Position numbers and translations under genes: made by a program | Part shown: positions 1 to 29,059 of the stretch, one piece after another | How positions within the stretch are numbered: the first letter of the stretch is position 1 | Layout of the letters: each line of letters starts with the position of its first letter | The notes under the pieces: model-generated | What the model was told of the DNA's origin: nothing | The model's database searches: none | The model's input: the letters and a program-made list of their open reading frames with translations, nothing else | NCBI GenBank assembly: GCA_951406725.2 | Contig: OX597815.1 | Span: 152,644,001 to 152,708,000, forward strand | Origin: Octopus vulgaris | Lineage: Eukaryota | Direction of reading: 5' to 3' | Length of the DNA stretch: 64,000 bases

Positions 1-979
1 ATTGATTTCTATAAGTTTTCACTTGAGCACTAGCATTGGTCAGTTTTTCTTGTGTCCCATAAAATTAGACTATTCTTACTGCTCTTATGATGTGTTTTTT
101 CATTCTAGGTGACAAGTTGAGAAGTGATGACAGAGAAAGAATGAGGATGCAGGGAGTGAAAGTTGTGAGAAAATGATGATAAGAATGGTGATTTGAAAGA
201 AAGGTGGAGAATGACAAGACTGACTGACAGTTGTGAGCCAACAGAGATGATTAATGATGTTATTAACATCTTGGGAGTGTGATAATTAAAGTCAAAAGTA
301 CTTATAAGAACATCATTCTCAGCTTTCTAATGTAGGAAATTCAATAACAAATCTCAACTAGAAATGTTTATAAGTGGTAAAAATTGTTAAAGATAATTTC
401 CTTTGTTTACAAAATCGTTCTCCAGAATTTCTTCTTGATTTATCATCTTATGGAGATGTCAGATTTTTACAGTAGTCTGATGTGTGGAGTTTCTTCCCAG
501 AATGTCTCAGGTTTACAAGGGCATTATAGTATTATAATATGTATTATAGTCTATATATATATCTCACTGAATGTTCAAAAACAAATGTTTTTTATTGCAA
601 AAACACAACTGTTTTCACTAACTAGACATACAAATAAACATCTCTATAAAAGTTAGCTTCAATCTCCACAATTTTACCTTTATTTTCTTCTTGACTACCC
701 GAAATATGCAAACATACTTTTTATTGGAATACCAGAAACATACTTTTTATTGGAATACACGGAGAAAAAGAAGGAAATAAAAATAGATGATACTAATAAT
801 AGATTCTCTATCATCGAACACAACTCTATTCACAAACACAGATCAAAGTCGGCCCTTCGTTGATTTTTTTCTCAAAGTCATGGTCACTATTTGCATGTTC
901 CAACAACAATATAGTAGACATTTGAACTCTTTTTGACCGATCAGACTCCATCATACTTTTAAAAAAAAAGTAGTAGTTG

Positions 980-1800
980 CGTATCTTTTCCTTTTGAACG
1001 GCACTTTGTAATTAAAAAGTTTTAAACTTTGTATACTGGTAGAATGTGTTTGTAAAACATCTTTTTCTCTTGGCTTTATTGAGAAAATTGTATAGGTTGT
1101 AAGATATTTTGTCTTTAATTTCAAGCATTTTGGCAATTTTAACCAATCGCTGAGGCCCATTTAGGTAAGTAACATTCTGTGCATAATGAATATGTCCCTC
1201 CTATGAGAAACAGATTGCATATATTTACATTTGTGAAGAAAACAAGATACCCTTCCCCAACCCCTAACCCTAACTAACCCTAACTCTAATCCTAAATCTA
1301 AAATAGACTGAAATGCAATAGATTGATACTAGGTCCATAATTATGGATGACATTTTCATTTGACACTGCTAGAAAAAAAATCCCATTTTCCATAGCGGTG
1401 TCGTATGAAATTGTCACCCATAATTATAACCCTAGTATTGATCTATTGCATTTCAATCTATTTAGGGTTAGAGTTAGGGTTGGTCAGGTTTAGGGTTATG
1501 GGTGGGGGAAGGGTATCTTATTTTCTTCACAAATGTAAATAAATCCAATCTGTTTCTTAAAGGGGGGACATATTCATTATGTACAGAATGTTATTTACCT
1601 AAATGGACGTCAGCCATTGGTTAAAGTTGCCAAAATGCTCGAAATTAAAGACGAAATATCTTACAACATATAGAATTTTCTCAATAAAAACAAGAGAAAA
1701 ATGATGTTTTACAAACACATTCTACCAGTATACGAAGTTGATAACTTTTTAGTTACCTAGATATTATGTCACAAAGTGCCGTTCAAAAGGAAGAGATCCG
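980..1800. mobile_element. Foldback/MITE-like element with internal (CCCTAA)/(TTAGGG)-like repeats, copy 1
   Basis: Ends cg(t/g)atcttttccttttgaacggcac ... gtgccgttcaaaaggaagagatccg. Two imperfect ~390-bp inverted arms around a ~20-bp spacer (about 1372-1392). Telomere-like repeats near 1260 and 1470. Confidence 0.8.
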
Positions 1801-2379
1801 TAGTAGCTGCTACAACTACTACCACTGCTACTATCAGAAATAACTACTACTACTACTGCTACAATTAGAAACATAAGTTGACAGTGACATCGAGATGTTT
1901 TTCCCTGTGTCTGAATCATACTGGTGACACCAATGAAAAATCCCTTTCTTTTTTTCTTTTGTTGGGAGAAAAGAGAATTTACAGTAACAACAAACCTTCA
2001 GCTCTCACTCCAGCATAAAAATTACTTCAACAAAATATTTTAATAGGGAAAAACGTGCGAAAAAATTAAATTAAATTAACGAAAGACAAATACATGAGCC
2101 TTCTCGCACATAAACACATTTATTCACATATATACAAACACATAAGCAGATGCAAATATTGAAGTACTAAATAGTAAAACAAATAATATTTAACCACATG
2201 GAGCATTTTACATGCATATCAATATTCTAAAGTTGGACCTACTATTCCTTATCCTAAAGCTACTAACAGATAAAGAAGAAAAGTTCCTGACTCATTTCAT
2301 CGTCTACTTTCAATCTTTGATTGTGATTCTGCTCAACCCAAACTTTCTCAGATTTTGCCTGCTGTTATCTACACCTACA

Positions 2380-3585
2380 AAGATTGCAGCTGTTTTTGTT
2401 CCTGCTTTTAACTATCAGAATTATCCTAGAACCCCTGGCAGCTATAGAAGATTGTTTTTGTCAACCATCTATCATGTCGTCCAAGCCTGGCTCAGCTACC
2501 TACAAATCGAAACTGATATCTGCGAAAAAAGGCGATCAATGATATCAAGCTTTCACATGAAGACCCTGAAATCAAGATTTCTAATCAAGAAGATGGTCTT
2601 ACTAACAAACATCTCAATGAGCAGTTGCTGTTGCTTAAACAAGAGGTCGAGCACCTTAAGTCTGTTGTTGCTGAATTACAGAATAAACAAACTGAATCCC
2701 ATTCAAAGTCTCCTATTGATGCAGAGCCACCCTTGATTTCTTCCCTAAAGACTTCCAAACTGAAGGGATCAAAATCGAAGCGGTCAAAGAAGGCAGAAGA
2801 ACCGGCAGTAATTTCCACTCATGATCCTATCTGTGCGGATTCTTCCTCATCTGCCTTTTCGGTCCCGGAGGTTCCCCAACCTGAATTGAGGAGCGTACAC
2901 TCAAACCCACCTGAAGACCATTGTTCTCCCCAAAAGAAAAAATGTAGTCAAAACTCCGGTGGGGCAGATTTAGATGTGAAACCTGCTCAAGATCAAATCT
3001 GTTTGGATTCTCCCTCATTTGTCCTTCTCATCAATGCCATTGCTCAACCAATTCTGCATGATCTTGATGTAAGTTCATCTGGGGAGTGGTGCTCCTCCAA
3101 AACAAAGAAGGGGCAGAACAGTTCCAAACCAGGCGGTAAAGTTATGACCACTAAACCCATTTCGATCGACCCCAACAGCCTACATAAGTGTGATGGCTAC
3201 GAAACCGCCCTTTCTAATTGATCAGATGAAGAATCGAATGCCGTAGTTCACAGTAGAGAACAGCAGAACGACCATTTTGCCCACTCAAGATCAGCAATCA
3301 TTTATTGTAAAGCTGAATCCACCGTTGATACAAGCATAAACCGCCTAAAAGCTGACATAAGTTTTGTTTCCGTTTTAGTTGGAGAATTGCACTTTGTCAA
3401 CGAAAATGTCATTATCCATAAGGTCGCTCGGCTAGGAAGATTCCAAGTGAACTCAACCTCAGACACTAGACCACGCCCAATAAGGGTAGTCTTTTCTGCC
3501 AATCAGGAGGCTTCAACCTTTCTGAACAGAGTTCAGAAGCATGCCCGGGAGGATTCTATATGGGTTTTCGCAAGGAATACTCACT
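2380..3585 (+). mobile_element. CR1/L2-group LINE ORF1 fragment (degenerate, 3'-truncated)
   Basis: Coiled-coil LKQEVEHLKSVVAELQ and the ORF1 motif RLGRF...RPRPIRVVF. Contains stops and frameshifts. Paralog of 9264-10503. Confidence 0.8.
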
Positions 3586-4125
3586 TTGAAGTGTGTACAG
3601 GGGCCATTTTCTTATAGTGCTAGCACTGGTCAGGTTGTCTTGCATCTCATATTATACAATTCTCATTGTTCTCTGATGTGTTTTTACAATCATGAAGACA
3701 TGTTGAGAAAGTGAGATGTTTAAGTGATAAGGGAAGAATAATGTGGATGCAGGTACTGAAAGTTACAAGAAAATGAGGATAAGAACAATGACATTAAAGA
3801 GAGGTGGAGAATGACATGACCAAACGGATGAAGCTAAGATACAATTATTTGTGAGATGGTTAATGATTCACTAACATCTTGAGAATCCAATAATCAAAGA
3901 CAGTGTTACTTAATGGAACATCAATGCTGGCTTTGGTAAAGTATGAGGCTTAATCACAAAATCTCAACAATCATTAGAAAGTCTACCTGTGAAATCATTT
4001 GTTCAGTGTTGTTGTGAATGTTCGTAAAAGGTAAAAGTTTTGATTAATAATTATAGCGTTTTGTATGAATGTGAATGTTGGTAAATTTTACTATAAATTA
4101 TAACACTTGAAATTATGAATTTCAG

Positions 4126-4161
4126 ACATGAATCTGCAGAATACACTTGCACAGCCACATG
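4126..4161 (+). CDS. 36-nt symmetric phase-1 micro-exon (xMNLQNTLAQPH) of an unknown gene
   Basis: tttcag|ACATGAATCTGCAGAATACACTTGCACAGCCACATG|gtgagt. Same length and splice context as 6822 and 16457. Confidence 0.7.
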
Positions 4162-4767
4162 GTGAGTTTAAAACTGAAGTACCAAATTGATTTCTATAAG
4201 TTTTCACCCAAGCACTAGCATTGCTCAGTTTTTCTTGTGTCCCATAAAATTTGACAGTTCTTAATGCTTTTATGATGTGTTCTTTCATTCAAGGTGACAA
4301 GTTGAGAAATGATAACAAAAGGATAATGAGGATGCTGGGAGTGAAAGTTGTGAGAAAATGAGGATAAGAATGGTGATTTGAAAGAGAGGAGGAGAATGAC
4401 AAAACTAAGTGACTGTCAGTTGCCAGCTAACAGAGATGATTAATGATGTATTAACATCTTGGGAAACTGATAATTAAAGTCAAAAGTACTTATAAGAACA
4501 TCATTTTCAGCTTTCTAATGTAGGAAATTCAATAACAAATCTCAACTGAAAATGTTTCAGTTGTTGAAGATAATTGTTAAAGATAATTTCCTTTGTTTAG
4601 AAAATCGTTCTCCAGAAGTCCTTCTTGATTCAAAATCTTATGAAGTTGTCAGATTTTTACAGTAGTCTGATGTTTGATATGAGATATCCTCTCTTGCAGG
4701 AGTATCTTCCCAAAATGTCTCAGGCTAGAATACGTATTATAATCTATATATATATATATATATATAA

Positions 4768-5050
4768 AACTTAGATTGCATGTATCTGTGCGTGTAAATG
4801 TGTGTCTGTCTGTATGTGTGCATCACTAAAACTCAAGATCTAACCTACTGATTTCATTCAAATTTCACACCTGCCTTAGTTATGGTCCATGTGGTGTCAT
4901 GGGCCGAACAAAGTTTCAACGTCTTGCGTAATGTGATCCTGGAGCAATCTCTTATCTCTTACACTATTTCGGTATTACTTGTCAGAAGTGAAACAATAAA
5001 ATCTCTATTGTAATGTGAATTAATACATTCACTGTGATATAGTTATGTAT
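4768..5050. mobile_element. Non-autonomous Helitron-like (DINE-1/Lep1-style) element; related copies at ~11748-12030, ~13910-14190 and inverted at ~63225-63480
   Basis: Shared (tgtc)n...ctaaaactc...actgatttcattcaaatttcac...ggtccatg...gtcatggg motif next to (TA)n. Class assigned by resemblance only. Confidence 0.5.
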
Positions 5051-5784
5051 GTATCTGTAAGTATATATATGCATGTATATGTATGCATGTATATGTATGT
5101 TTACATATACATGCACACATATCAGATCAGATTGGAGCCTGGTGCAGCCTTCAGGCTTGCCAGACCTCACTCAGACCTCAGCATGGAAAGCGGATATTAA
5201 AAGACGATGATGATTATGATGATGGAAGTTCTACAGTATAGATCTGTGCTGAGACATAATAATATTCACTGCAATGAAAGTCACATATTTTTTAGTCAGA
5301 TTATATACAAGTTATATAGATATCTAGTATTGCAATGTCAGACAGTGTTTTTTTGTATTGTATCACATATACAACCTGTTAACATGATAATGAATCAGAT
5401 ATTATTTATTAACTGATTTACATTGGTATTTCTGAAATTTAACCTTATTTTGCCATAGCATCGTCTTGTACCCTCACCAAACAGATTTAAACTTTATTAC
5501 CATCTGTGTAAATAATTCAACTGTTTTTCTTGGGCATGCAACCACTCCACTACAAACTGGTATTATTGACTTCTATAGTCCAATAAGGTCCAGATGTTAT
5601 TGTGTCCTAAAACAAAATGTGAAGCATATCTGTATATTTATGGTACTATTTCGGTATATTTTATAAAGCATTATTGTGACCTTTTGTAATTAGTTGGTCT
5701 TAATTCACATCAATGACAAATGTAGTACAACAGTGGTAATGTGAATGGGATTACATATTCCTTGTGATGTTGTCCTTATATTAG

Positions 5785-5832
5785 CTATAACATCACATAC
5801 AGTTTCTGTCAGTCACACCTTGCTACACAGGT
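5785..5832 (+). CDS. Candidate 48-nt symmetric phase-1 micro-exon (xITSHTVSVSHTLLHR)
   Basis: ccttatattag|CTATAAC...ACAGGT|gtaagt. Length is a multiple of 3 and it is open in phase 1, but the acceptor is weaker. Confidence 0.4.
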
Positions 5833-6821
5833 GTAAGTTCCAAGTCCTCAAGTTTAGATACAGGCTGCTTGATGCAAAATAATAAATGATAGTGTCATTA
5901 CCATTCACCATCAGCTTCCAGGCTCCCATTGATTAGATGGGTCATCAATGTCCAAGTCAGTTCTTATTCTGAGTTAACATCCACTTTCACTAATTGAGGT
6001 ACACACACGTCTCACTTAAATACTCTGGATTTTCTTTGAGGAGATACCCTTCTTAACACCAACCATTTTATAAAGGATCTTGGGTATGTTTTATTGTAAC
6101 ACAGGCAATAATAAGACTGTCATCATCATCACCATTTATCGTCCATTGTCCATGCTGGCATGGGGTGGACAGTGTGACCAGAGCTGACAAGCGGAGGGGC
6201 TGTACCAGACTCTAATGTCCACAACTAGATTGAACGTTGCACTCAAAATTACGCAGTCTCCTCTCATTCATCAATCACTTTCATGTGCGTACTGGGGCCA
6301 GTTTCTCATAGTGCTAGCACTGGTCAGGTTGTCTAGCATCTCATAATATTATACAATTCTCATTGCACTTTCATGTGTTTTTACAATCATGAAGACATTT
6401 TGAGAAAGTGAAATGTTTAAGTGATAAAGGAAGAATTCTGAGGATGCAGGTACTGAAAGTTACAAGAACATGGTATAAGAATAATGACTTGAAAGAGAGG
6501 TGGAGAATGACATGACCGAATGGATGAAGCTAAAATACAATTATTTGTGAGATGGTTAATGATTCACTAACATCTTGAGAATCCAATAATCAAAGACAGT
6601 GTTACTTGCTAGAACATCAATGTTGGCTTTGGTAAAGTATGAGGCTCAATCACAAAATCTCAACAAGACTTAGAATGTGTACTTGTGAAATCATTTGGTC
6701 AGTGTTGCTGTGAATGTTTGTAAAAGGTAAAAGTTTAGATTAATAATTATAGCTTTTTGTATGAATGTGAATGTTGGTAAATTATACTATAATTTATAAC
6801 ACTTGAGATTATGTATTTCAG

Positions 6822-6857
6822 GCTTACAAAGGCAGGTTACAAATGAAGAGCCAATAA
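6822..6857 (+). CDS. 36-nt symmetric phase-1 micro-exon (xLQRQVTNEEPI)
   Basis: tttcag|GCTTACAAAGGCAGGTTACAAATGAAGAGCCAATAA|gtgagt. Only the phase-1 frame is stop-free. Confidence 0.7.
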   Translation, partial: AYKGRLQMKSQ

Positions 6858-6881
6858 GTGAGTATAAAACTGAAGTACCAA

Positions 6882-9800
6882 ATTGATTTCTATAAGTTTT
6901 CCCTTGAGCACTAGCATTGGTCAGTTTTTCTTGTGTCCCATAAAATTAGACTATTCTTACTGCTCTTATGATGTGTTTTTTCATTCTAGGTGACAAGTTG
7001 AGAAGTGATGACAGAGAAAGAATGAGGATGCAGGGAGTGAAAGTTGTGAGGAAATGATAAGAATGGTGATTTGAAAGAAAGGTGGAGAATGACAAGACTG
7101 AGTGACAATCAGTTGGGAGCCAACAGAGATGATTTATGACATATTAACATCTTGGGACTGTGATAATTAAAGTCAAAAGTACTTATAAGAACATCATTCT
7201 CAGCTTTCAAATGTAGGAAATTCAATAACAAATCTCAACTAGAAACGTTTATAAGTGGTAAAAATTGTTAAAGATAAATTTCTTTGTTTACAAAATCGTT
7301 CTCCAGAATTTCTTCTTGATTTATCATCTTATGGAGATGTCAGATTTTTACAGTAGTCTGATGTGTGATATGAGATATCATCTCTCGCCGGAGTATCTTC
7401 CTGGAATGTCTCAGGCTTACAAAGCATTATAGTATCATAATATGTATTATAGTCTATATATATACCTCCCTGAATGTCCAAAAACAAATGTTTTTTTATT
7501 GCAAAAACACAACTGTTTTCACTAACTGGACATACAAATAAACATCTCTAGAAAAGTTAGCTTCAATCTCTACAATTTTACCTTTATTTTCTTCTTGACT
7601 ACCCGAAATATGCAAACATACTTTTTATTGGAATACCAGAAATAAACACACGGAGAAAAAGAAGGAAATAAAAATAGTTGATACTAATAATAGATTCTCT
7701 ATCATCGAACACAACTATTCACAAATACAGATCAAAGTCGGCCCTTCGTTGATTTTTTCTCATGGTCACTGTTTGCATGTTCCAACAACAATATAGTAGA
7801 CATTTGAACTCTTTTTGACTGATCAGACTCCATCACACTTTAAAAAAAAAAGTAGTAGTTGCGGATCTTTTCCTTCTGAACGGCACTTTGTAATTAAAAA
7901 GTTTTAAACTTTGTATGCTGGTAGAATGTGTTTGTAAAACATCTTTTTCTCTTGGCTTTATTGAGAAAATTGTATAGGTTGTAAGATATTTTGTCTTTAA
8001 TTTCAAGCATTTTGGCAATTTTAACCAATCGCTGATGCCCATTTAGGTAAATAACATTTTGTGCATAATGAATATGTCCCTCCTATAAGAAACAGATTGC
8101 ATATATTTACATTTGTGAAGAAAACAAGATACCCTTCCCCAACCCCTAACCCTAACCCTAACTAACCCTAACTCTAATCCTAAATCTAAAATAGACTGAA
8201 ATGCAATAGATCGATACTAGGTCCATAATTATGGGTGACATTTTCATTTGACACTGCTAGAAAAAAAATCCCATTTTCCATAGCGGTGTCGTATGAAATT
8301 GTCACCCATAATTATAACCCTAGTATTGATCTATTACATTTCAATCTATTTAGGGTTAGTCAGGGTTAGTCAGGGTTAGAGGTGGGGGAAGGGTATCTTT
8401 TTTTCTTCACAAATGTAAATAAATCCAATTTGTTTCTTAAAGGAGGGACATATTCATTATGTACAGAATGTTATTTACCTAAATGGACGTTAGCCATTCG
8501 TTGAAATTGCCAAAATGCTCGAAATTAAAGACGAAATATCTTACAACATATAGAATTTTCTCAATAAAAACAAGAGAAAAATGATGTTTTACAAACACAT
8601 TCTACCAGTATACGAAGTTTAAAACATTTTAGTTACCTAGATATTATGTCACAAGGTACCATTCAAAAGGAAATGATCCGTAGTTGCTGCTACAACTACT
8701 ACCACTGCTACTATCAGAAATAACTACTACTACTACTGCTACAATTAGAAACATAAGTTGACAGTGACATCGAGATGTTTTTCCCTGTGTCTGAATCATA
8801 CTGGTGACACCAATGAAAAATCCCTTTCTTTTTTTCTTTTGTTGGGAGAAAAGAGAATTTACAGTAAAAACAAACCTTCAGCTCTCCTTCCAGCATAAAA
8901 ATTACTTTAAAAAAATATTTTAATAGGGAAAAACGCGTGAAAAAATTAAATTAAATTAACGAAAGACAAATACATGAGCCTTCTCGCACATAAACACATT
9001 TATTCACATATATACAAACACATAAGCAGAGGCAAATATTGAAGTACTAAATAGTAAAACAAATAATATTTAACCATGTGGAGCATTTTACATGCATATC
9101 AATATTCTAAAGTTGGACCTACTATTCCTTATCCTAAAGCTACTAACAGATAAAGAAGAAAAGTTCCTGACTCATTTCACCGTCTACTTTCAATCTTTGA
9201 TTGTGATTCTGCTCAACCCAAACTTTCTCAGATTTTGCCTGCTGTTATCTATACCTACAAAGATTGCAGCTGTTTTTGTTCCTGCTTTTAACTATCAGAA
9301 TTATCCTAGAACCCCTGGCAGCTATAGAAGATTGTTTTTGTCAACCATCTATCATGTCGTCCGAGCCTGGCTCAGCTACCTACAAATCGAAACTGAGATC
9401 TGCGAAAAGGGCTCGTTCTGCTGATCCTCTTTTGGAAAATTCAGTTAAAAAGGCGATCAGTGATATCAAGCTTTCACATGAAGACCCTGAAATCAAGATT
9501 TCTCATCAAGAAGATGGTCTTACTAACAAATATCTCAACAAGCAGTTGCTGTTGCTTAAACAAGAGGTCGAGCACCTTAAGTCTGTTGTTGCTGAATTAC
9601 AGAATAAACAAACTGAATCCCATTCAAAGTCTCCTATTGATGAAGAGCCACTCTTGATTTCTTCTGTAAAGACTTCCAAACTGAAGGGATCAAAATCGAA
9701 GCAGTCAAAGAAGGCGAAAGAACCGGTAGTCGTTTCCACTTATGATCCTATCTGTGCAGATTCTTCCTCATCTGTCTTTTCGGTCCCGGAGGTTCCCCAA

Positions 9801-10503
9801 CCTGAATTGAGGAGCGTACACTCAAACCCACCTGAAGACCATTGTTCTCCCCAAAAGAAGAAATGTAGTCAAAACTCCTGTGGGGCAGATTTAGCTGCGA
9901 AACCTGCTCAAGATCAAATCTGTTTGGATTCTCCCTCATTTGTCCTTCTCATCAATGCCATTGCTCAACCAATTCTGAATGATCTTGATGTGAGTTCATC
10001 TGGGGAGTGGTGCTCCTCCAAAACAAAGGATAGGCAGTGCAGTTCCAACCAGGCAGTAAAGTTATGACCACTAAACACATTCTGTTCGACTCCAATGGCC
10101 CACATATGTCTGATGGCTACGAAACCACCCTTTCTAATTGATCAGATGAAGAATCGAATGCCGTAGTTCACAGTAGAGAACAGAACGACCATTTTGCCCA
10201 CTCAAGATCAGCAATCATTTATGGTAAAGCTGAATCCACCGGTGATACAGGCATAAACCGCCTAAAAGCTGACATAAATTTTGTTTCCGTTTTAGTTGGA
10301 GAATTGCTCTCTGTCATCGAAAATGTCAGTATCCATAATGTCGCTTGGCTAGGAAGATTGCAAGTGAACTCAACCTCAGACACTAGACCACGCCCAATAA
10401 GAGTAATCTTTTCTTCCAATCAGGAGGCTTCAACCTTTCTGAACAGAGTTCAGAAGCATGCCTGGGAGGACCTCTATATGGGTTTTCGCAAGGAATACTC
10501 ACT
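6882..10503. repeat. Segmental tandem duplication, copy 2 (matches 1-3585)
   Basis: Same collinear match, offset about 6.9 kb. Confidence 0.95.
7862..8680. mobile_element. Foldback/MITE-like element, copy 2, flanked by 6-bp direct repeat TAGTTG
   Basis: cggatc...gatccg termini; tagttg at 7856-7861 and 8681-8686. Confidence 0.8.
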
Positions 10504-11740
10504 GAGACAGAATTCATCGAAGAAACCTGATATCCGAGCTGAAGATGAGAAAACAGATGGGAAAGAAGGGTTTACGCATACAAGATGGTCAAATAATCAA
10601 GTACTACCTCTGGTCACATGCTGTAGTGCTGACACGGAAAGTTAATCGAGGGCGAATCAAAGTAAAGTAGATACCCCCGACAACAATGCTATCCTTCATA
10701 CCCCTTATTCTGCTTGTTCTCTAATTCCCGCCCCTCTATCTTCAGGGCTCAGCATCATCTATATTAACTCGTGCTCCTTACTTCCAAAGTTCAGCGAATT
10801 ATTTACATTGGCCATGCGTGATTCTCCAGATGTGATAGCTATCACCGAGACTCGGCTGACTCCAGCAGTAAAGGACTCTGAATTCCACCTACGGGGCGAC
10901 ACGCTCTTCAGATGTGACAGAGAAAAAGGGCGAGGTGGAGGTGTTGCTGTGTATGTCAAATCTGATTTCAAACCGTCCAGCTGTATTCTATTCACTAATG
11001 CTCAACCTACAACAAAATTCTATGCCAACTATTGCAAGCTGAGCCTATCCAGGTTTTGCCTGCCCGTGTTAGCTGTCTACAAGCCACCTCTTGCTGACCC
11101 CCAGGACGATGCTCATTTACTCAAAGCAATAAGATTCGTTTCATCTTCTCATGAATGTTTGATATTAGGAGACTTAAACGCTCCCACGATCGACTGGCCC
11201 GCATCAATTTGTACATCATCTTCCCTGTTCGGCCAGGCCCTTCTTGACATGGCTGAAGATTGTTTTCTATTGCAACATGTTGAATCTCTGATAAGGCATC
11301 GGTCTGGGCAGCAGTCATCTCTGCTGGATCTGGTATTCTCCCGCTATCCAAGATCAGTGTCAGGCTTATCTGTGTGCAGCCCTCTTGCCAAGAGTGATCA
11401 TGCTGTCCTGAAGTTCGACATGCACAAAACTTTTTCTACGTCCACGACTACTTCGCTACCACGTAGAGTCTTCTCTGCAATCAATCTTGAAATTCTAACC
11501 GAGGCTTCTGTGCTTCTGGACTGGCAATCCCTGATGACGATGTCCTCAGTTGACAAATAAGCTGCCGGATGAGATAGTGAAGATGCCGACGACCGCTTGG
11601 TACAAAGTCTCTCTTGACCAGAAATGGACTGAACTCTTTGTATGACCACACTCCTTGTACATAACTCCCTATCCCCCTACATGCCCTTTCTTTTGCGTTT
11701 TGAGCCAATAAAAATTAAATTAAAATTAAAATTAAAAATA
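9264..11740 (+). mobile_element. CR1-group LINE: ORF1 + APE endonuclease + ORF2 C-terminus and 3' tail, RT domain missing
   Basis: APE motifs PDVIAITET, RGGGVAVYVK, GDLN..IDW, LDLVF and SDH in ORF 10808-11560. Then NKLPDEIV...K.SLDQKW* (11556-11645) and an (AAATT)n tail. Confidence 0.88.
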
Positions 11741-15777: not shown

Positions 15778-16276
15778 GAGAGAGAGAGAGAGAGCTGGTG
15801 TATGATGATCCGAACTGATGTGGTGTATCATGTGTGTGTAGCTAGATCTTAGATGGCCAACCCCTGGTTGACATTAGAATTAAGCAGATGATGAGAAGAA
15901 TATTGCTTAGTAAAATCTAAACGTGAGAGAACAATGGCATATCATAGATATGACAGAAATATAATAAATGAAAGACAAAACTAAGTGATAATAATCCTTA
16001 GCAAGTGGTAAATAAATGTGATAATTGCAACATTGTTAGATTAAGTAGGATGTCTTAATATAGAGAGGAGATTTAGGAAGGCTAGTTTGATCTGTTGAGG
16101 ACCTAAATATCAAGTTATTACATGGTACCACTGTAGAAAGTATAAAAATGTTGACTGAAATCACAGTGGTCTCCAGTTGACCATTAATGATAGGAATATC
16201 TCGCAACAATAAAATATAAATTCCAATAGAGATATAGAAATTTAACTATACAGTTTAAAACTTGGAAATATTTCAG

Positions 16277-16348
16277 TGACTCTAAGACTGAGCGTGCAGG
16301 ATCTCCTAAATTTTGCTGAAAGTTTTGCACGAAAGCGGAATCATGATG
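16277..16348 (+). CDS. 72-nt symmetric phase-1 exon (xTLRLSVQDLLNFAESFARKRNHD)
   Basis: atttcag|TGACTC...CATGATG|gtaagtata. The downstream intron start resembles that of the 36-nt exons (...aattggtttctataagtttt). Confidence 0.65.
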
Positions 16349-16456
16349 GTAAGTATAAGATAAGAATACTTAATTGGTTTCTATAAGTTTTACCTACAGT
16401 TGACATCCATTGTTCATGCTGGCATGGGTTGGACTGTTTGAAATTATGAATTTCAG

Positions 16457-16492
16457 ACATAAATCTGCAGAATATACATGCACAGCCAATTG
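16457..16492 (+). CDS. 36-nt symmetric phase-1 micro-exon (xINLQNIHAQPI)
   Basis: tttcag|ACATAAATCTGCAGAATATACATGCACAGCCAATTG|gtgagt. Paralog of 4126-4161. Confidence 0.7.
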
Positions 16493-25934: not shown

Positions 25935-25962
<28 letters not shown>

Positions 25963-25968
<6 letters not shown>

Positions 25969-26250
25969 TGTTGTGTCTGGGGAGAGTAATTTTCTTTTTG
26001 TGCCTTATAATGTAACACACTCACCGGTAAAATTTCCACTTTTTTCTTATTTTTATTTTGCTCTTGAAAAGGTTGCAAGATGCAATGAAAATTTTAGGAA
26101 AATAAAAATAAGAAATAAGTGGAAATTTTACCGGTGAGTGTGTTACATTATAAGACACAAAAAGAAAATGACTCTCCCCAGACACAACAGAATATGCTTC
26201 AACACACAAACCCATATAAAGAATCTTGCAAACCAAATCCAAAAATGAAA
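25963..26250 (+). mobile_element. Short PLE-type terminal fragment with ~100-bp inverted arms
   Basis: Arms at about 25963-26062 and 26096-26193. Unpaired tail ttcaacacac...aatcttgca resembles 38198-38250. Lies between (TA)n tracts. Confidence 0.65.
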
Positions 26251-29059
26251 TATATATATATTGAGAGAGTAGTAATAATAACAATAGTCCTTGGATGAAA
26301 TTTAGAAACATTTAATGGATTAAATGCTTATAAATTCCATCCTAGGATTATTGTTATTGGTATTATATTTATCCTACATTATATCGGTACAATTTCAGGC
26401 AACCGCCAAAAACTGGTTCACCAGTCAGTATCATTAGACTAAGGCAGGCATAATAGGATGGGAGCTTTATTTGCATGTTCAAAATGTTTCCCATTAACAA
26501 ATTTAAAAGATATATATAGAGATAGAGATTTATAATAGTATAAAATACAATTATAATTAAGGGCAGAGAAGAGACCATGCCTATGCTGAAAATAGATGCT
26601 AAATCGTGAAACCACTTAAAATTATCACTTTTATATTATACATGTGTTGAAATCATGGGACTAAGTTCACAGAATTTCATAAAATAATTAGCCTTGGATT
26701 GATCAATTTCTGGATTAGTCTAATAATTTTTCCTCATCAGCCAGGCATACTAAGGGAAATAAATGAGATACTTATATATACCCACAGGAAAGCTACGATT
26801 ACATACAAATATCACAAATATGTCCACATCGAATATCACGATCTATTTGTTCAGAGAAGTACAGACATGCTAGACTATGAAATTCAATGTCGAACCACTA
26901 AGCTACAGGGAAGTAAACGTACCAACATCGGTTACCAAGCAATGGTGGTGGGGAGACAAACACAGACACACAAATACATACACACACACATACATGCATA
27001 CATACATACATACATACATACATATGTATATACACACACACACACACACATATACAATGGGGTTCTTTCAGTTTCCTTCTACCAAATCCACTCACAAGGC
27101 TTTGGCCAGCCCAAGGCTATAGTAGAAGACTCTTTCCCAAGATGCTACACAGTGGGACTGAATCGGAACCTTGTGGTTAGGAAGCAAGCTTCTTACCACA
27201 CAACCACTCTTGCATATATATATGTATTATTGTACATATATGTGTGTCTTAGATAGATTCTTCACAGATTTGTGCTAAAAATGCACCAGTCAGTCCCATA
27301 AGCCACTGCAGTAATGATGCTTGTCTCCCTCTCCAATATATATTGTTTTTGCCTCTGAACAATGCGTATATATTTACAATGATAAACAGATGGTGATACT
27401 GTATCTTTTTTTTTTTGTATTATGTACTCTTGTTCATTATATACTTTTGATGGTTTCTTGTGAGAAATCTTAGGTCTTGTGCCTCAACTACATGATCTAT
27501 CCTCATATCATAGTCTTGTGCCACTCAGATATTTGTGGCAGAGATTTTTCTTTATCAATTTCTCCTTTGTTCAATCTTGCCAAGCAGTGCCATTGTCTTC
27601 ACATGTCTCTAGTCCTATTTTCAGCTTAATTTTCTTTTTCTTTGTAAACAGTGAAGGCATAAGAGTGACAACAGGCATAGGTGTGGCCGTGTGGTTAAAA
27701 CCATTGCTTCCCAGCCATAAAGTTTTGTGTTCAGTCCCACTGAATGACAACTTGGGCAAGTGTCTTCTAGTATAGTCCTAGACTAAACAAAACCTTATGA
27801 GTAGATTTGGTGAATGAAAACTAAAAGGTCTGCAAATACATACATACATACATTTCAATGACTATAGATACAATCACGGAAACTGTATAAATCTGTAAAA
27901 CTTCCCAGAAGTTTATCATTGAAATACATATGAGAATATCTAGATATGCAACTATATGCATCAGAATATATACATAAAACATAAAAATCTGCACATATAT
28001 ACGTACAAGCAAACAAACAAAAATACCCTGTTGAAATTCCAATGAAGGAACCTTGGATTTTGGTTAGAAACCGACTCTTTCTCTATTGGCAAGAAATCTT
28101 GTTTTATTGCTGGTTTGGTTACTGTTTGCATAACACTATATTTTTATGTTTCCTATTTGGAAATAGGTAAATATATTTTACCTTTGAAGTAGGAATATAT
28201 ATTGATAAACATGTCACTTATAACTTACTTATAAGTGTTATCATTATACATAAATCCTGACTCCAGTTACATAAACATCATAGCAAGAAATATATACTTT
28301 GAAATGCTAATGGACATTTTATGCATGCATGTATGTTGAAGATAAATAAATTTGTGTTTTTTTAACCACAGTTTCATAATTGCAGAAATAAATTTCATTA
28401 ACAATTTGAAGAACGTGAAGTAAGAGAAAATAATTACTACATTATTTTATTTATGTACATTTAGCATTTATAGTACAATTGGAAAGTAAAGTCATTTTGT
28501 CATAGTGCTTTACGACTTAAAATTCACATTAGCTAATCCTTCATACTAACTACTAGAGTTCACAACAATTCAAATAAGTCTTGTTGGATTTTTATCATAG
28601 ACATGGCCTAAAAAATAGCTAATATCTCAATGAGTGAGTGTTGTGGAGTTTAGTAACATCCTACAAACACTGAGTAATTTCCCAAAACTCAGGGTTTTTA
28701 TAACTGCTCATATCCAAATTCTAAGAACCATATTTTGTGAAAGGTTTCTTTGACGTAAGTTTAGAATTTGTATATGGGCAGTAATTTTAACCAATGAGAT
28801 TACCAACAATTATACTTGTTTGGGTAAACAACCATTACATCATATTGCTGCCTTTTATGACTTGCTACACTTGAAATAAAACTGAACAATGGCATACATG
28901 CATGCATGTATGCATACATACATACATACATACATACATACATACATACATACATACATACATACATACATACGTACATATAAATCTGTAAAACTTATAT
29001 ATATATACACATAAAAACCATACGTCCGTACGTATGCATGTATGTATGTATGTATGTAC

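Follow-up and report, generated by a model that had tools for sequence, protein, structure and literature searches.

Searches for positive selection in receptor families usually look at the ligand side. Siglec and KIR pairs, which are single-pass receptors, combine near-identical ectodomains with divergent intracellular signalling parts and follow an immunoreceptor tyrosine-based inhibitory motif (ITIM) or activating-motif (ITAM)-adaptor logic. Exons evolving faster than introns have been described for conotoxins, snake PLA2 and abalone fertilisation genes (10.1101/107672), and small symmetrical exons with possible combinatorial splicing and raised dN/dS for the micro-exon genes (MEGs) of schistosomes (PMC4350168). 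An octopus-specific expansion of adhesion G-protein-coupled receptors (aGPCRs), termed group 3, was described together with branch-level selection (Ritschard et al. 2019, PMC6408891), and aGPCRs figure in invertebrate responses to microbes, PMC6208332 supporting no more than that. Here we describe an array of mini-exons in 64,000 nt of Octopus vulgaris DNA (assembly GCA_951406725.2, contig OX597815.1, positions 152,644,001 to 152,708,000 of the forward strand; the window). These exons are part of the cytoplasmic linker between the seven-transmembrane (7TM) region and a degenerate Death domain of a GAIN/GPS aGPCR, and nonsynonymous change was found in excess at the cytoplasm-facing codons of this gene and confined to them. 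Diversifying selection on the cytoplasmic face of the receptor, whatever drives it, is the probable cause of the excess. Positions are those of the window; the prefix C2 denotes positions on the contig that carries it.

A sequence-only reading of the window had drawn attention to two mini-exons lying in duplicated modules:

4126..4161, + strand: type A mini-exon, 36 nt, phase 1-1, 12 cytoplasmic-linker codons; AG/GT bounds, type B to type A GT..AG joint in runs X1 and X3
6822..6857, + strand: type B mini-exon, 36 nt, phase 1-1; AG/GT bounds, joint to a type A start in runs X9 and X10
3581..4766, + strand: flank of the duplicated module that holds exon A, 87% to 6275-7464 by alignment
6275..7464, + strand: duplicated module flank around exon B, by alignment

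A recount reproduced the identity of these exons at only 19 of 36 positions, as well as the 4 substitutions in the 65 nt upstream and 6 in the 67 nt downstream, and both exon and module alignments bore out that the divergence ends at the AG and GT of the splice sites. When the whole modules were aligned, 117 of 1143 intron columns were substituted (10.2%) and no equally divergent patch was present in the introns, the worst 36-column intron window holding 9 substitutions vs 17 in the exon (Fisher p=4e-8). The description of the flanks as highly conserved did not hold, as the near flanks (10/132) were not significantly more alike than the module elsewhere (107/1011; p=0.36); they are ordinary duplicates diverged by about 10%. 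The 5 base differences between the exons at 4126 and 16457, all altering amino acids (M>I, T>I, L>H and H>I), were likewise counted correctly but fail as stand-alone evidence of selection, the neutral probability being about 0.27. The copy at 16457 has lost its upstream flank and sits past the first Death-domain exon.

A genome search with the module gave 40 matches in four paralogous arrays, all on C2. Canonical acceptors and donors were present in 39 modules, with exons of 36, 57 or 66 nt; identical duplicates accounted for 14 of the 39, leaving 25 distinct exons, of which 22 entered the codon tests, the other 3 being frameshifted (65, 65 and 58 nt). Retention by types A and B of different halves of the 66-nt exon, which would make the 19/36 an artefact, was rejected: both align ungapped to the same columns, each differing from 66-nt exons at 10-14 of 36 positions. 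Among the distinct exons the mean pairwise difference was 0.33, vs 0.12 in the flanks, with exon diversities of 0.37, 0.32 and 0.20 at the three codon positions. Exon divergence exceeded flank divergence in 657 of the 741 (non-independent) pairs among all 39 modules. Ten disjoint pairs, hand-picked from the flank tree and including 4126/6822, had a proportion of nonsynonymous differences (pN) of 63.8/367=0.174, a synonymous proportion (pS) of 9.2/107=0.086 and a flank divergence of 596/8376=0.071. Nonsynonymous divergence was thus higher than synonymous (p=0.022) and, across these further copies, higher than intronic divergence (p=1e-10), with synonymous sites and flanks similar (p=0.57). The excess survived removal of CpG transitions (0.132 vs 0.067) and of the pair 4126/6822. 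Under MG94, with the mutation matrix taken from the flanks, omega was 2.2-2.9 (p=0.0007-0.005), with a synonymous rate 1.05-1.64 times that of the flanks and no significant difference on two flank-based trees; GY94 with exon frequencies gave 2.6-3.3. In IQ-TREE, GY gave an omega of 2.7 on the exon tree, with likelihood ratio tests at p of 4e-5 to 0.002 over three trees; its nulls used a coarse kappa grid, and our own MG94 and GY94 models are preferred.

The change is episodic, occurring in bursts between exon types rather than continuously, because recent copies of the same type show no exon excess: variable sites in exon vs flank were 1/36 vs 53/879 in the array of paralog D, 1/36 vs 45/624 for type A and 5/36 vs 77/876 for type B. 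Thirteen near-identical 2.74-kb modules, 12 of them with an identical 36-nt exon, lie at C2:152049653-152082622 and represent a very recent expansion; in the O. sinensis model P0002 the D-type tail has 11 repeats vs 13 in O. vulgaris.

Besides selection on the peptide, which the tests above support, the sequence-only reading had offered gene conversion that homogenises introns and spares exons. Wholesale homogenisation is unneeded, as synonymous divergence in the exons equals that of the flanks, and the sole conversion tract found, extending from about -94 to +105 around the module at C2:152467876, carried the exon along together with some 100 nt of flank to either side; conversion is local in scale. 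A related account would have conversion homogenise the introns and ectodomains of old paralogs and modules, with selection merely keeping older cytoplasm-facing differences, so that the apparent acceleration is retained age. The tract just described, the mosaic 3' flank of the A' copy at 16457, a star-like flank tree with weak deep support, the raised pS of the last 7TM exon and, by eye, a 7TM end of P0002 that mixes residues from several paralogs are all consistent with this. It is regarded as unlikely, as mini-exon pS and the fitted synonymous rate are close to those of the flanks, near flanks are no more alike than far ones, the clear tract copied the exon itself, and selection on cytoplasmic codons would still be required.

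Divergence was then resolved by membrane topology between the window gene and the full-length paralog D, with loop boundaries assigned from hydrophobicity. The extracellular part (656 codons) had a pN of 0.030 and a pS of 0.036, with introns at 0.041, and the transmembrane part (140 codons) a pN of 0.073. In intracellular loops 1 to 3 (ICL1-3), 35 of 110 nonsynonymous sites had changed (pN 0.32), and the first Death-domain exon compared with paralogs had a pN of 0.21-0.31 and a pS of 0-0.10. For cytoplasm-facing codons pooled without the mini-exons, nonsynonymous changes were 68/237 vs 6/57 synonymous (p=0.004). Divergence tracks membrane topology within single exons, a pattern expected from neither hypermutation nor intron homogenisation. 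Exon-targeted hypermutation, which would account for divergence ending at the splice sites, is scarcely credible: synonymous sites and third positions are not raised to match, the agreement of pS with flank divergence largely refuting it, cytoplasm-facing codons alone change within single exons, and the 13 young copies contain 1 segregating exon site. With an ectodomain at intron-level divergence and loops, tail and Death domain about eight times faster, the pattern points to selection acting on downstream coupling or on evasion of an intracellular antagonist.

The remaining coding features of the window are as follows:

1..3585, + strand: intron following the type B exon whose end lies 24 nt upstream of the window
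16277..16348, + strand: first Death-domain exon, 72 nt, phase 1-1; joined by splicing to a type B exon in run X1
16457..16492, + strand: type A' mini-exon between two Death-domain exons, upstream flank lost; outside read coverage
22024..22142, + strand: last coding exon, Death domain second half; tblastn to P0001 1216-1254, E=0.004

Past TM7 the order is a 66-nt exon, B, A, B, A, B, A (4126), B (6822), Death exon 1, A' and Death exon 2, and a single open frame connects the HRM exon, by way of all 9 tail mini-exons, with the last exon. The type B exon at 6822-6857 has a single open reading frame; an Ig-like 'YTC' frame was rejected, having a stop in type B while the preceding exon ends in phase 1. 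Further exons, located upstream of the window, encode what we take to be an LRR cap, a SEA-like region rich in Cys and a GAIN domain; HRM, GPS and 7TM exons lie there as well. The GPS exon at C2:152602210, preceding TM1, matched Pfam PF01825 (E=3.4e-15) and contains an HLT motif; autoproteolysis and G-protein coupling are predicted at most, and its donor at C2:152602365, which no read confirms, is a weak site picked to keep the frame. All 7TM exons mapped in frame; singly they matched 7tm_2 weakly (E about 0.02), and homologs did so at E=1e-23 and 2e-12. Homology of the ectodomain to P0001 residues 214-834 (60-88% per exon) argues for a GAIN domain and a long multi-domain ectodomain. The best homolog was O. 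bimaculoides XP_014788728.1, which contains LRR, GPS, 7tm_2 and Death domains, and the named homologs were exclusively from Octopus. By inspection, P0001 and P0002 alone among 26 homologs had a long repeat tail, others with a complete end being short-tailed; the O. vulgaris model P0008, whose ectodomain matches the window gene by eye, misses the whole tail. The LRR+GPS+7TM+Death architecture of P0001 matches the description of group 3 in PMC6408891, making this the most likely family by architecture rather than by tree.

Paralog D has many 72-nt LRR exons, which the window gene is without (about 43 kb are absent relative to D), the LRR-cap exon being kept. That exon had 60 matches genome-wide, mostly in clusters on C29-C31, evidence of a far larger LRR receptor family. 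The Death domain of the window gene is homologous to that of P0001 but incomplete: it is truncated, a Trp of the paralogs and the O. bimaculoides homolog is Arg in exon 16277-16348, and A' possibly interrupts it. The last coding exon has an early stop and falls a net 51 nt short of its length in two paralogs, an ending shared by P0002. Damage to the domain is seen in the window gene and paralog D, whereas two other copies have it intact; separate Death exons, those of intact paralogs included, gave no Pfam match. Death exon 1 is present three times in each of two paralogs. Its flanks (16213-16390) weakly match mini-exon flanks (scores of 43 and 38 vs shuffle maxima of 30 and 31), which hints at a shared origin long ago; the mini-exon sequences themselves had no similarity to Death exon 1.

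Splicing of the array was examined with reads from 4 of 24 listed runs (X1, X3, X9 and X10, from four studies) over 7.5 kb that contain B, A and B; none of the runs is recorded as RNA. In public contigs of X1 and X3 a GT..AG joint leads to the A exon at 4126 from the B exon that lies directly upstream of the window, and X9 and X10 contained a joint from the end of a 6822-type B exon to a type A start. These joints prove B-to-A splicing in the array of this gene, their assignment to exact copies being ambiguous because the exons are repeated. One contig of X1 passed from the B exon directly upstream of the window into Death exon 1 (a loose end of 30/30 letters), a junction that may reflect either skipping of exons or an allele carrying fewer modules. 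An open purine-rich stretch some 130 nt past each donor, the last exon of P0008, was rejected as an exon owing to its varying acceptor and frame; among the joints listed none led to it, and it was treated as intron. A possible short AG..GT exon at 28370-28420, beyond the last coding exon, was noted by eye.

As for the origin of the tail, one linker exon with its flanks could have been multiplied by unequal crossing-over to yield the 36-, 57- and 66-nt variants. Soon after duplication the copies would fix amino-acid changes while introns drift at the neutral rate, and short conversion tracts would shuttle exons between modules. The resulting tail, low in complexity and rich in Ser, Thr, Gln and Pro, would be a disordered string of docking units. 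Junction codons along the window array encode G, Y, G, N, G, Y and G: a T-ending B joined to A creates a Tyr codon across the junction (Y-I/M-N-L), of which there are two, an A-ending B joined to A gives Asn, and a skip to the Death exon gives Leu. The junction Y-x-N is presumably a motif of Grb2-SH2 type, and Y-E-E-P, present in one B copy, is a candidate site that we take to be an SH2-binding consensus. No canonical ITIM was seen by inspection in the tail of the window gene. As the junction codon depends on the neighbouring exons, exon order and number would set the count of candidate phosphotyrosine sites. The paralogs bear other tails, acidic Tyr-rich exons among them, and paralogs with near-identical ectodomains would in this way gain different signalling outputs; the signalling role of the tail is proposed from sequence.

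A second exon class was observed that uses the donor flank of the module with an upstream TAG acceptor (phase 1, 87-129 nt; donors at C2:152440897, 152470460, 152472437-152476392, 151932528 and 152088177). Its peptides are acidic, often with Tyr, and one copy is frameshifted. Three of these exons were 79-80% like the end of a repeat resembling a short interspersed element (SINE) at 5158-5223, suggesting exonisation of a SINE-like repeat. The D-type exon of this class recurs in the O. sinensis model, where, around the tyrosine, 4 of 22 residues have changed.

Rewiring of signalling output among paralogs was judged the most likely driver of this selection, followed by an arms race in which a microbial or parasite effector binds loops and tail. 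In favour of an arms race, every cytoplasm-facing segment, short loops included, changes together. An LRR ectodomain with a Death domain resembles innate-immune architecture; we know of no intracellular antagonist, and recent copies are stable. PMC6408891 reports group 3 expression in gills and skin but also axial nerve cord expression, and favours a neural adhesion role. The arms race, counted within selection on the cytoplasmic face and making up roughly one third of it, is possible but somewhat doubtful.

Several results weigh against selection on the cytoplasmic face. The base is small, with about 107 synonymous sites, and the estimate is model-dependent, GY94 with flank base frequencies giving an omega of 1.4-1.7 (p=0.10-0.30). 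Exons of recent copies are no more variable than their flanks. ICL1-3 alone did not separate nonsynonymous from synonymous change (p=0.12), and synonymous divergence of the last 7TM exon (0.18-0.24) was above that of its flanks (0.05-0.07), which hints at older divergence retained near selected sites. No A-to-B joint was present among those listed on the 7.5-kb stretch, which is evidence neither way. Several paralogs are partial, the window gene lacks LRR exons and has a damaged Death domain, and 3 of 39 mini-exons are frameshifted, all of which fits relaxed constraint. These last features, with the higher CpG content of exons (40/1359 vs 132/21739) and the non-significant omega of one model, would suit a decaying, unconstrained spacer whose neutral drift is inflated by slippage, CpG decay or mildly constrained flanks. 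Such a spacer is improbable, as an exon-specific rate of 2.6-3.2-fold would be needed, the excess remains once CpG transitions are removed, introns and ectodomain synonymous sites diverge alike, the youngest array has no exon hypermutability, length variants are mostly in frame, and the nonsynonymous excess is topology-specific. Diversifying selection on the cytoplasmic face is therefore preferred.

Other features of the locus concern its duplication history. Window 1-3585 belongs to a higher-order A-B repeat unit (93% to 6882-10503). Fragments resembling long interspersed elements (LINEs; ORF1 and endonuclease-like), identified by eye in array introns at 2460-3600 and 9340-11600, were duplicated together with this unit. 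Each module has an older internal duplication flanking the exon (3620-3968 vs 4215-4546, 68% identity). The 3' region of the gene occurs in six segmental copies in both orientations at C2:151.86-152.71 Mb, several of them split by inversions, and one segmental region is 100% identical to 25945-27000; pseudogenes or assembly artefacts may be among the copies.

The exon-faster-than-intron pattern and the receptor expansion were already known; inner-face targeting and a modular tail with junction tyrosines were not found in print, in a search covering few subscription papers and excluding the PMC6408891 supplements. The available part of PMC6408891 identifies no selected sites and describes neither the mini-exon tail nor a cytoplasm-facing localisation. 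The present results localise the branch-level selection reported for the octopus expansion and offer a direct test of neural-adhesion vs immune readings of the family. The sequence-only analogy with toxin and immune genes stands for the divergence pattern, exon divergence exceeding that of flanking introns with dN>dS, and the ratio of about 2.9 between mature-toxin exons and flanks (10.1101/107672) compares with 0.33/0.12 in the octopus tail. It fails for the nature of the peptide: toxin and gamete genes encode secreted or extracellular peptides, whereas the mini-exons follow TM7 and precede the Death exons, the fast part being intracellular and the ectodomain slow. MEGs share small symmetrical exons and raised dN/dS but are secreted parasite proteins made mostly of micro-exons (PMC4350168); in octopus, micro-exons are restricted to a 7TM receptor tail and are tandem duplicates with their flanks. 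Tentatively, the cluster may be a paired-receptor system with one shared sensor and many outputs, the reverse of most fast-evolving receptors, in which a tail cassette writes and erases phosphotyrosine sites, some junction-encoded, through copy number, conversion and splicing, while selection, possibly by an intracellular pathogen effector, drives loops and Death domain apart. The likeness to paired receptors lies in the near-identical ectodomains of the octopus paralogs, and the difference in that the octopus receptor is a 7TM protein.

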